Assembly (NCBI RefSeq): GCF_058153355.1
Contig: NZ_CM177019.1
Length of the DNA: 64,000 nt
Strand: one strand, 5' to 3'
This document shows, piece by piece, positions 17,794-56,912 of the stretch (position 1 is its first letter; every line of letters starts with the position of its first letter). The translations under genes and the position numbers were made by a program. Under the pieces are notes generated by a model. The model was not told where the DNA came from, did not search any database, and was given only the letters and a program-made list of their open reading frames with translations.

Positions 17794-17876
17794 CCCAGAG
17801 GTATTGATAGGTGAAGTCAACTTCGGGTTGAGCACATGAATTACACCAGCCTGCGCAGATGCGCAGGTTTTTTTTT
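17794..17876 (+). ncRNA. omrB: OmrB small regulatory RNA (Hfq-dependent, OmpR-regulated)
   Basis: Sequence CCCAGAGGTATTGATAGGTGAAGTCAACTTCGGGTTGAGCACATGAATTACACCAGCCTGCGCAGATGCGCAGG + T-run matches OmrB; in the galR-aas intergenic region. Confidence 0.9.
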
Positions 17877-17990
17877 GCCGGTCATCAATCTGTAACAGTA
17901 ACCGACAATTTACACACCTCGTTGCATTTCCCTTCATTCCTTTGCGTTTTATCGCTGGCGAAGAGTCGTCGTGCAGACCACAATCAAGAT

Positions 17991-18078
17991 CCCAGAGGTA
18001 TTGATTGGTGAGATTATTCGGTACGCTCTTCGTACCCTGTCTCTTGCACCAACCTGCGCGGATGCGCAGGTTTTTTTT
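17991..18078 (+). ncRNA. omrA: OmrA small regulatory RNA
   Basis: Sequence CCCAGAGGTATTGATTGGTGAGATTATTCGGTACGCTCTTCGTACCCTGTCTCTTGCACCAACCTGCGCGGATGCGCAGG + T-run; shares 5' and 3' ends with OmrB. Confidence 0.9.
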
Positions 18079-21542: not shown

Positions 21543-22583
21543 TTATGGTGCCGGATAAGTATAAACCTGATGCACCGCTTCAATTTCAGCTAATACGTCT
21601 TCGCTTAACTCCAGATGCAAACTTTCGACGTTAGTTTTCAGCTGCTCCATCGTGGTTGCGCCCAGCAGAGTGCTGGCAACAAACGGTTGACGGCGTACAA
21701 AAGCGAGCGCCATCTGAGCAGGATCCAGGCCATGACGTCTGGCGATATCAACATACGCCGCGACGGCTTTTTGCGTTTGCTCACCGCTATAGCGGGTGAA
21801 CCGACTAAAGAGCGTATTACGTGCGCCAGCGGGTTTTGCACCGTTGAGATATTTCCCGGTCAGCGTGCCGAAACCCAGGCACGAATAGGCCAGCAGTTCG
21901 ACCCCTTCATACTGGCTGACTTCTGCCAGACCTACTTCAAAACTGCGGTTTAACAGACTGTAAGGGTTCTGAATGGTGACAATACGCGGCAGATCGTGTT
22001 TGTCCGCCAGATGCAGGTAGCGCATTACGCCAAATGCAGTTTCGTTCGACACGCCGATATAACGAATTTTCCCCGCGCGTTGGTACTCTGCCAGTGCGTC
22101 CAGCGTATCCAGCAGCGAAACCGCAGGGGCAGAATCTGTCCAGCTATAACCGAGTTTGCCGAAGCAGTTGGTTGGGCGCTGCGGCCAGTGCACCTGATAA
22201 AGATCGAGGTAATCAGTCTGCAGGTGCTTGAGGCTGTCATGCAGAGCTTCGCGGATATTCTTCCGATCCAGCGCCTGATCCGGGCGGATGCCCTTGTCAT
22301 TATTGCGCGACGGTCCGCTCACTTTGGAAGCGATAATTAACTTTTCGCGGCTGCCATGTTTTGCCAGCCAGTTGCCGACGTAGGTTTCGGTTAACCCTTG
22401 CGTTTCGGGGCGCGGAGGTACTGGGTACATTTCGGCAACGTCGATAAGGTTAATGCCCTGAGCGACGGCATAGTCGAGTTGTGCGTGGGCGTCGGCTTCG
22501 CTGTTCTGTTCACCAAACGTCATCGTGCCAAGCCCCAGCGTGCTGACTTCCAGCGAACTGTGGGGTATACGGTGATATTGCAT
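21543..22583 (-). CDS. tas: Aldo-keto reductase Tas
   Basis: 346-aa aldo/keto reductase family ORF. Confidence 0.9.
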   Translation of the reverse strand: MQYHRIPHSSLEVSTLGLGTMTFGEQNSEADAHAQLDYAVAQGINLIDVAEMYPVPPRPETQGLTETYVGNWLAKHGSREKLIIASKVSGPSRNNDKGIRPDQALDRKNIREALHDSLKHLQTDYLDLYQVHWPQRPTNCFGKLGYSWTDSAPAVSLLDTLDALAEYQRAGKIRYIGVSNETAFGVMRYLHLADKHDLPRIVTIQNPYSLLNRSFEVGLAEVSQYEGVELLAYSCLGFGTLTGKYLNGAKPAGARNTLFSRFTRYSGEQTQKAVAAYVDIARRHGLDPAQMALAFVRRQPFVASTLLGATTMEQLKTNVESLHLELSEDVLAEIEAVHQVYTYPAP

Positions 22584-22690
22584 AGCCGTTTCCTTTTTAT
22601 AATCACGACATAAGGAATATAAAAATGGCAGAGGGAAGGGAAAAGGGAAAGAGAAAAATCTTAAGGCCAGCCGGATGCTGACCTTATTTG

Positions 22691-22909
22691 TTAACGTTCA
22701 ATAATTTGCGAAACATCATCACGGTTAATTTGCATCGCGTTACCTTGCTGATCGTGATAACTCACCAGCCCGGTATCATCATCAATTTCAGGTTTTCCAT
22801 CGGTCAAAATCATACGGCCATCTTTGGTCGCCATGACGTAATCACTGGAACACCCGGATACAGCAAACGCCAGTCCGACTGCAGAAATTATTACTGCCCA
22901 TTTTTTCAT
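22691..22909 (-). CDS. ygdR: Small lipoprotein, DUF903 family
   Basis: [22 protein letters not shown] lipobox; 72 aa; paralogous to the ygdI product at 56460. Confidence 0.85.
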
Positions 22910-23045
22910 CCGGTTATCCTCATTTGGCCCACCTATGATAATAGTCTTTTTATAAACCGACGTTATATATCTTGAAAGCAGGAAAATCTTAAACTGTGAG
23001 GGTAACAGGAGTGAGTACGCTCTCCTGCAGGAGAGCGTACGGATA

Positions 23046-23759
23046 TCAGAGCGGATTCTTTTTGTTGCGAATAAGGTTGAGACTTTCAACCGCAATAGAG
23101 AAGAACATCGCGAAGTAGATGTAACCTTTCGGTACGTGGATGTCGAAACTTTCCAGAATCAGGGTAAAGCCCACCAGAATCAGGAAAGAGAGCGCCAGCA
23201 TTTTTACCGAAGGATGGCGTTCGACAAAATCACCAATCGAGCGCGCGGCAAACATCATCACGCCTACGGCAATCACCACGGCTGCCATCATAATAAACAG
23301 GTGATCTGACAGACCCACAGCGGTAATCACCGAGTCGAGGCTGAAGATGATATCCAGCAGCATAATCTGCACGATAGCGCCGAGGAATGATGAAACGCGT
23401 GTTTTCAGCCCTTCTTCTTCACCTTCAATGGATTCGTGGATTTCCTTGCTGGCTTTCCAGATAAGGAACAAGCCACCCAGAAGCAGAATCAAATCACGGG
23501 CGGAAATTTCCTGACTGAATATTGTAAAAAGCGGATTCGTCAGGCGCGTAACCCAGGCGATTGATGCCAGCAGCGCCAGACGCATAACCATGGCTCCCGC
23601 CAACCCCAGACGCCGCGCATGAGCACGTTGTGCTGTGGGGAGCTTTGCCACCACCAGAGAAAGAAAAATAATATTGTCGATCCCAAGAACGATCTCCAGC
23701 AGCGTCAGCGTACCGAGCGCAAGCCAGGCGTTAGGATCGGTTATCCATGCAAATAACAT
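23046..23759 (-). CDS. ygdQ: TerC-family inner membrane protein
   Basis: 237-aa multi-TM ORF, syntenic. Confidence 0.85.
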
Positions 23760-23827: not shown

Positions 23828-24517
23828 CTACTGGATCAGAAAATGACGGGCCAGCAGCGCACTGGTGAAATTCTTCTTCAAATAAAAGCCACGCGGCAGC
23901 GTCAGAATCCGTTCGCCCCGGGCACCAATGGCTTCGGTAAGCGCTTTCGCATTCGCTGCTTTCGGGCGTATCTGTAAATACTCCCCGTGACGAGCGGTGA
24001 TCCGCTCAACCTGACCGAGAACAATCATATCCATTAATTCTTCCCAGTCTTCGCGCAGTTGCCGGTCTTCCTCTTCATTCGGGCTCCATAGCAATGGTGA
24101 TCCTACGCGGCGCTGCGCTAGTGGGATGCTACGTTCGCCTTCAACCGGTATCCACAGCACGCGTTTGAGCTTGTGGCGCACGTGGCTGGTTTCCCAGGTC
24201 ACTCCACTATTGCCCGTTAATGGGGCAACACAAACGAATGTTGTTTCCAGCGGACGCCCAAGACTATCCACAGGAATAGTTTTAAGTTCCACACCCAGAG
24301 CAGCAAAATCTTGTTCTGGTTTACTCCCAGCACTGGCACCTAGCCAGATCTCCAGCAACACGCCGATCCAGCCCTTATCGCGTTTTAAATTCTCCGGCGT
24401 AACCAGCCCGGCAAGTGCCGCCAGTTCTCCCAGTGTATAACCGGAAAGTTGCTGTGCTTGCGCTAACAACTGTGCTTCTGTTTCGGGAGGAGAGAGCAGT
24501 GGGCGAGGTTGGGACAT
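23828..24517 (-). CDS. mutH: DNA mismatch repair endonuclease MutH
   Basis: 229-aa ORF matching MutH. Confidence 0.92.
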
Positions 24518-52196: not shown

Positions 52197-52273
<77 letters not shown>

Positions 52274-52306
52274 TCACCGTACTGCTTTACTTCATCAAAT
52301 TTTGAT

Positions 52307-52383
<77 letters not shown>

Positions 52384-56706: not shown

Positions 56707-56912
56707 AAAAAAAAGCACCGCAATTAGGCGGTGCTACATTAATCACTATGGACAGACAGGGTAAATGTACAGGAAGTGAAAAAAGGTAGCTTTGCTACCA
56801 TGGTCTGAATCGCAGACCAATTGCAAACACAACAACACAACATCACAACCGTAAGCCAAAAGTTCACCAGAACACGCATTCCGATAAAACTTTTCGTTCC
56901 GGCTCAGGAAGT
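56707..56912 (-). ncRNA. gcvB: GcvB small regulatory RNA
   Basis: Reverse complement begins ACTTCCTGAGCCGGAACGAAAAGTTTTATCGGAATGCGTGTTCTGGTGAACTTTTGGCTTACGGTTGTGATGTTGTGTTGTTGTGTTTGCAATTGG… and ends with hairpin + T8; divergent from gcvA. Confidence 0.9.

Follow-up and report, generated by a model that had tools for sequence, protein, structure and literature searches.

The window, a 64,000-nucleotide stretch of Escherichia coli DNA, carries the genes mutH, ygdQ, ygdR and tas in this order on its minus strand (table 1). The spacer between ygdQ and ygdR contains GTACGCTCTCCTGCAGGAGAGCGTAC, a perfect 26-bp inverted repeat at 23015-23040 that begins 5 nt past the ygdQ stop codon and ends 105 nt short of the ygdR ATG (22907-22909). 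It occurs a single time in the 64 kb, and no further copy was found elsewhere in the window when up to three mismatches were allowed. Perfect palindromes of at least 26 bp are expected about 0.001 times by chance in 64 kb, and the longest one obtained in 200 shuffles of the window measured 22 bp, against 26 bp in the real sequence. The runner-up in the window, TGCTGGATATCCAGCA (61575-61590), has 16 bp, a length that is common in shuffled controls. An earlier note had reported a perfect 26-bp palindrome between the two genes, and it was right about its existence, the repeat being single-copy and far beyond chance expectation. The position that it gave, 23020-23049, is shifted by about 5 nt, so that it overlaps the ygdQ stop codon, and the repeat does not lie right at that stop, as had been stated, but in the spacer behind it.

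Table 1. Coordinates of genes and sequence elements around the ygdQ-ygdR spacer, in window positions
Feature	Position	Strand	Basis
mutH	23828-24517	-	
ygdQ CDS	23046-23759	-	ORF list; YgdQ/TerC-family annotation at the matching region in E. coli genomes
ygdQ stop codon TGA	23046-23048	-	ORF list
RNA stem 5' arm GUACGCUCUCC, ygdQ-sense transcript	23030-23040	-	11-bp stem fold
4-nt loop UGCA (UGCG in K-12 and most E. coli)	23026-23029	-	fold, allele comparison
RNA stem 3' arm GGAGAGCGUAC (K-12 GGAGGGCGUAC, one U·G wobble)	23015-23025	-	fold; compensating changes at 3/9 core pairs
Counterpart of the mapped K-12 ygdQ 3' end (MG1655 2,971,170 +)	23010	-	5 nt past stem (UCACU); placed by homology from Adams et al. 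2021
C-rich, G-poor spacer UCACUCCUGUUACCCUCACAG, 9 C / 2 G; candidate rut-like start	22994-23014	-	composition; rut function putative
Conserved box TTTAAGATTTTCCTGCTTT between hairpin and ygdR	22975-22993	-	multi-genus alignment
-10-like TATAAA (TATTAC in other genera), between hairpin and ygdR	22949-22954	-	multi-genus alignment
ygdR	22691-22909	-	
ygdR canonical intrinsic terminator, 10-bp stem then AGATTTTTCT	22662-22686	-	consensus terminator scan
tas	21543-22583	-	

When read as RNA in the sense of ygdQ, the palindrome forms a GC-rich 11-bp stem capped by a 4-nt loop, at -19.2 kcal/mol for the hairpin by itself (window allele) and with a z of -2.6 for the fold in its 111-nt context. The tail after the stem (UCACUCCUG) is without a U-tract, with 3-4 U (T) within 9 nt, and the 6 nt preceding the stem include 2 A, that is, no A-tract. 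Cytosines outnumber guanines by 9 to 2 in the 21 nt after the stem, this C-rich stretch being short (about 21-30 nt). A consensus terminator scan, which called the terminator of ygdR, did not call the palindrome on either strand, because no T-run is adjacent to it on either strand. Rfam searches, both a local permissive scan and a whole-window gathering scan, assigned no family, the palindrome matching only meaningless sub-threshold miRNAs. Known RNA genes of the window, at 17794-18078 (+), 56707-56912 (-) and 52200-52383 (-), comprise OmrA and OmrB, GcvB and two tRNAs.

The perfectly symmetric form is rare among the alleles of this RNA hairpin. Among 5,426 complete E. coli genomes, exact matches to a 35-nt query numbered 5,242 for the K-12 form, 59 for the perfect palindrome, which strains 2020CK-00188 and AR_0013 carry, 43 for a TGCG loop on a fully Watson-Crick stem and 2 for a TGCA loop with the wobble; the two places at which the perfect allele matches in a genome are both strands of one palindrome, and 5,424 of the 5,426 genomes carry the locus once. 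The K-12 MG1655 allele, GTACGCTCTCC-TGCG-GGAGGGCGTAC, has an altered loop and one A-to-G change in the 3' arm, which breaks the DNA dyad at two positions while the RNA pairing is kept: the change gives a U·G wobble in the ygdQ-sense RNA but a C·A mismatch on the opposite strand, and the K-12 hairpin is predicted at -20.1 kcal/mol in sense versus -14.4 in antisense. In strain ET846, an additional C-to-T change in the 5' arm again produces U·G on the sense strand. As to the surroundings, an identity of 99% or more over the 301 nt at 22850-23150 is reached by just 2 of 5,424 E. coli genomes, the remainder standing at 95-99%, so that the window comes from a lineage that is uncommon at this locus.

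We compared 80 orthologous YgdQ loci, taken from one genome per species, which together with the window and K-12 make 82 sequences; the statistics that follow are uncorrected for shared ancestry. A hairpin of -8 kcal/mol or lower was present within 20 nt of the ygdQ stop in 78 of these 82 Enterobacterales orthologues, with medians of -17 kcal/mol and 6.5 nt from the stop. Shuffled controls had a median of -5.4 kcal/mol, and their 5th percentile was undercut by 90% of the real hairpins. The sequence of the stem is unconserved, and several unrelated stems occur (CGCTCCCC.., CAGCCCTC.., GCAGCCC.., GGGGAAAG..). When the entire spacer was aligned across several genera, invariant blocks appeared only downstream of the hairpin, namely, the TTTAAGAnnTTnCTGCTTT box, TATnAn, the Shine-Dalgarno sequence and the ATG. 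The earlier note had proposed conservation analysis as a check, and its outcome is divided: the hairpin structure has been kept and the palindromic sequence has not. Eight of the loci (L041, L042, L068, L071, L073, L075, L080 and L081) have no ygdR-like lipoprotein gene within 450 nt after ygdQ; in L041 and L042 a strong hairpin is still found 6 nt past the ygdQ stop.

Covariation was assessed in a gap-free alignment of ten close 22-mers from Escherichia, Citrobacter and Salmonella, a MAFFT alignment of 30 hairpins having ignored the stems. Among these ten alignable stems, both partners have changed in three of nine pairs (A:U/U:A, U:A/C:G and C:G to U:G to U:A), and the one-sided intermediates are exclusively U·G. 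Paired cells amount to 98.9%, versus 45-61% with the partners slid. When G·T and A·C were scored equally, so that neither strand was favoured, 22 G·T were counted against 5 A·C (binomial p = 0.0015) over 70 distinct hairpins, next to 600 Watson-Crick pairs. Moreover, when hairpins were picked independently on both strands, the sense fold was the stabler one in 49 cases versus 23 (Wilcoxon p = 0.015). These observations all point the same way, toward selection for a structure in the RNA of ygdQ and not for a symmetric DNA site.

Published transcript-end maps cover the locus in K-12; all the experimental 3'-end data thus concern the K-12 allele and not the window allele. Adams et al. 2021 (eLife 10:e62438) report a Term-seq "primary" 3' end of ygdQ at 2,971,170(+) in LB at OD 0.4, the only one of the three growth conditions to yield the call. 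In K-12 this position corresponds to the U of UCACU, 5 nt past the last stem base. Transcript 3'-end mapping, the other check proposed in the earlier note, is in this way available for the K-12 allele. No opposite-strand 3' end near the site is listed in the tables of Adams et al. 2021, and the locus is not mentioned in the PLoS Genetics 2018 supplements. At the ygdQ 3' end, the intrinsic-terminator score is 1.39 for a threshold of 3, the Rho score is 2.05 and the Rho region flag is "Yes"; the corresponding Rho (bicyclomycin-sensitive) region peaks at 2,971,168 with a Rho score of 2.13 (p = 4.7e-6). Against the Rho reading, only 4.5% of the Rho regions of that study are found 50 nt or less from the end of a gene (Adams et al. 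2021). The Rho score uses 800-nt windows (Adams et al. 2021), and because the downstream one holds ygdR and its inducible promoter, bicyclomycin could raise the score without readthrough.

The same study offers some further observations on this region. The terminator of ygdR corresponds to a strong Term-seq 3' end, MG1655 2,971,521, present thrice in the three-condition table, and this canonical terminator is likewise short-tailed in the data (Adams et al. 2021). The inclusion rule of supplementary file 3 of Adams et al. 2021 implies a TSS within the ygdQ coding region, 20-200 nt ahead of the 3' end; the implied zone is about 2,970,970-2,971,150 in K-12 (window about 23030-23250), and the hairpin may therefore also end a short transcript that starts inside ygdQ.

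We consider that the palindrome is very probably the stem-loop at the RNA 3' end of ygdQ and not a DNA operator. As to how this end arises, we lean, with less assurance, toward a route combining Rho and exonucleolytic trimming. Once ygdQ is transcribed, the RNA of the palindrome would fold 5 nt after the stop codon and form the 3'-terminal structure of the mRNA. Because the hairpin lacks a U-tract, RNA polymerase would mostly pass it; Rho would then load on the untranslated, C-rich and G-poor RNA downstream and terminate transcription in the ygdQ-ygdR spacer or beyond. The 3'-to-5' exonucleases PNPase and RNase II would trim the tail back to the stem, which may block them and thereby stabilize the ygdQ message. 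A side effect would be the insulation of the downstream, separately controlled ygdR promoter from ygdQ transcription.

Ends of this type have been described by Dar and Sorek 2018 (NAR 46:6797; PMC6061677), who showed that Rho-dependent transcripts have precise steady-state 3' ends right after stable stem-loops, with reduced U, without an upstream A-tract and with C in excess over G downstream, and that such ends arise by PNPase/RNase II trimming of longer tails. The ygdQ locus shares with this class the stable stem-loop right upstream of a precise 3' end (in K-12), the absence of U-tract and A-tract, the excess of C over G downstream and the flagging as bicyclomycin-sensitive in K-12; like 76% of the class, its element is not a REP. 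It differs from the class in that its stem lies unusually near both the stop codon (5 nt) and the promoter of the gene behind, and its Rho score is only about 2; trimming by exonucleases at ygdQ would follow by analogy with the class. The modest Rho score speaks against the Rho route, as does the C-rich stretch, whose approximately 21 nt are short for a rut site and are followed by AT-rich promoter DNA. The ygdQ hairpin is probably one more ordinary case of this known class, with a K-12 3' end that published genome-wide tables already contain; the value of the present analysis is mainly one of annotation: a role is assigned to an eye-catching palindrome and its coordinates are corrected.

A 3' end just 5 nt past the stem in K-12 is also compatible with a weak intrinsic terminator after trimming. 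One may even regard the mapped end as the direct product of a non-canonical terminator, in which a strong hairpin and a U-poor tail (UCACUCCUG, read with U) free some polymerases. The strength and geometry of the stem are those of intrinsic terminators (a GC-rich 11-bp stem and a 4-nt loop directly after a gene), and at the same position 40 of 57 sequences from other genera show, right behind their hairpin, 5 T or more within 9 nt; hairpin and T-tract occupy the orthologous site in Kosakonia, Klebsiella, Raoultella, Kluyvera, Franconibacter and others. Unlike a canonical terminator, however, the hairpins of Escherichia, Citrobacter and Salmonella lack the U-tract, with at least 5 T in the 9 nt past the stem in none of 17 sequences and a strong C over G bias in all of them; in addition, the consensus scan is silent, the published score lies under its threshold and the region is sensitive to Rho inhibition. 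We thus regard direct release at the hairpin as unlikely. The earlier note had suggested a terminator stem, which is borne out insofar as an RNA hairpin precedes a published K-12 3' end and does not extend to a canonical intrinsic terminator.

The contrast between lineages, noted over the first 60 nt behind the ygdQ stop, is pronounced: in the 25 nt past the stem, C:G is 192:28 in the Escherichia, Citrobacter and Salmonella sequences, and it is 312:166 in the 57 sequences of the other genera. The hairpins of Kosakonia and Phytobacter (GCTTCCCC...GGGGAAGC) resemble the GCTCCCC...GGGGAGC of Escherichia and Citrobacter but have A- and T-tracts. In Kosakonia, this likeness lends some weight to the intrinsic reading; in both genera, it suggests, without proving it, a lineage-specific switch from intrinsic to Rho-dependent termination. 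In this scenario, which we find conceivable though on balance doubtful, an ancestral terminator hairpin would have lost its tracts in Escherichia, Citrobacter and Salmonella, gained a C-rich, G-poor spacer and been kept only for RNA stability. If true, this would be a clean natural example of turnover of terminator type at an orthologous site, possibly linked to the Rcs-type ygdR promoter right behind, and the lineage contrast could be a small test case for the interconversion of intrinsic and Rho-dependent ends.

The stem begins within reach of a ribosome terminating at the ygdQ stop, which raises the possibility of a regulated attenuator, where hairpin formation or Rho access would depend on ygdQ translation and tune readthrough into ygdR. 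The short spacing between stop and stem is conserved, ygdQ translation is repressed by MgrR/Hfq at its 5' end according to the literature, and Adams et al. 2021 class the 3' end as ORF-upstream (-101 from ygdR), a regulator-enriched category. Against this, inclusion in that table is automatic, short distances from stop to terminator are common, no alternative (anti-terminator) pairing or conserved sequence was found around the stem, and ygdR has its own conserved promoter-like blocks. An attenuator of this kind seems to us improbable. The Hfq/MgrR literature, which concerns the 5' UTR and coding region of ygdQ, was set aside as irrelevant to the 3' hairpin.

What speaks for a dimeric transcription factor, controlling ygdR or blocking ygdQ readthrough, is the perfect dyad of 26 bp itself, placed between genes and some 75-100 bp upstream of the likely ygdR start; the earlier note had named a protein-binding operator as its second option. 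This option is unsupported because the dyad is broken, at two positions, by the allele that about 97% of E. coli genomes carry, because the sequence turns over between genera, and because the one-strand G·U bias is an RNA signature. Indeed, the half-sites differ from genus to genus although promoter blocks at a distance of 20 bp have been kept, and the excess of G·T over A·C mismatches is a strand asymmetry that DNA binding does not predict. The site is also tied to the ygdQ stop and not to the ygdR promoter, the hairpin persisting in L041 and L042 without ygdR, and no second genomic copy suggests a regulon. A search for protein-binding data on the palindrome found none, the ygdQ literature covering the 5' UTR and coding region (Hfq/MgrR). 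We hold an operator to be highly improbable. Just as improbable is a member or remnant of a REP/BIME-like repeat, or a functionless chance palindrome: REP elements are likewise intergenic and hairpin-forming, are able to stabilize upstream mRNA against exonucleases and often lie at the 3' ends of Rho-dependent genes (Dar and Sorek 2018), but the ygdQ palindrome has an unrelated sequence, belongs to no Rfam family, occupies one locus per genome (the repeat-family reading was rejected on this single-copy ground), is hardly expected by chance and holds its position in nearly all orthologues.

Downstream of the hairpin, the left half of the TTTAAGATTTTCCTGCTTT box matches exactly the published RcsB box TN(G/A)GA-N4-TC(T/C)NA and its right half deviates at two positions; PMC5105897 lists ygdR among the Rcs-induced genes. 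If the -10 assignment is right, the box would span roughly -49 to -36, and the palindrome roughly -98 to -73. In Salmonella enterica subsp. arizonae (L017), an insertion of about 26 nt, located some 115-140 nt after the ygdQ stop, duplicates part of the ygdR promoter block (TTATTACTAGTCTATTATCAGAC...AGACTATTATCAG).
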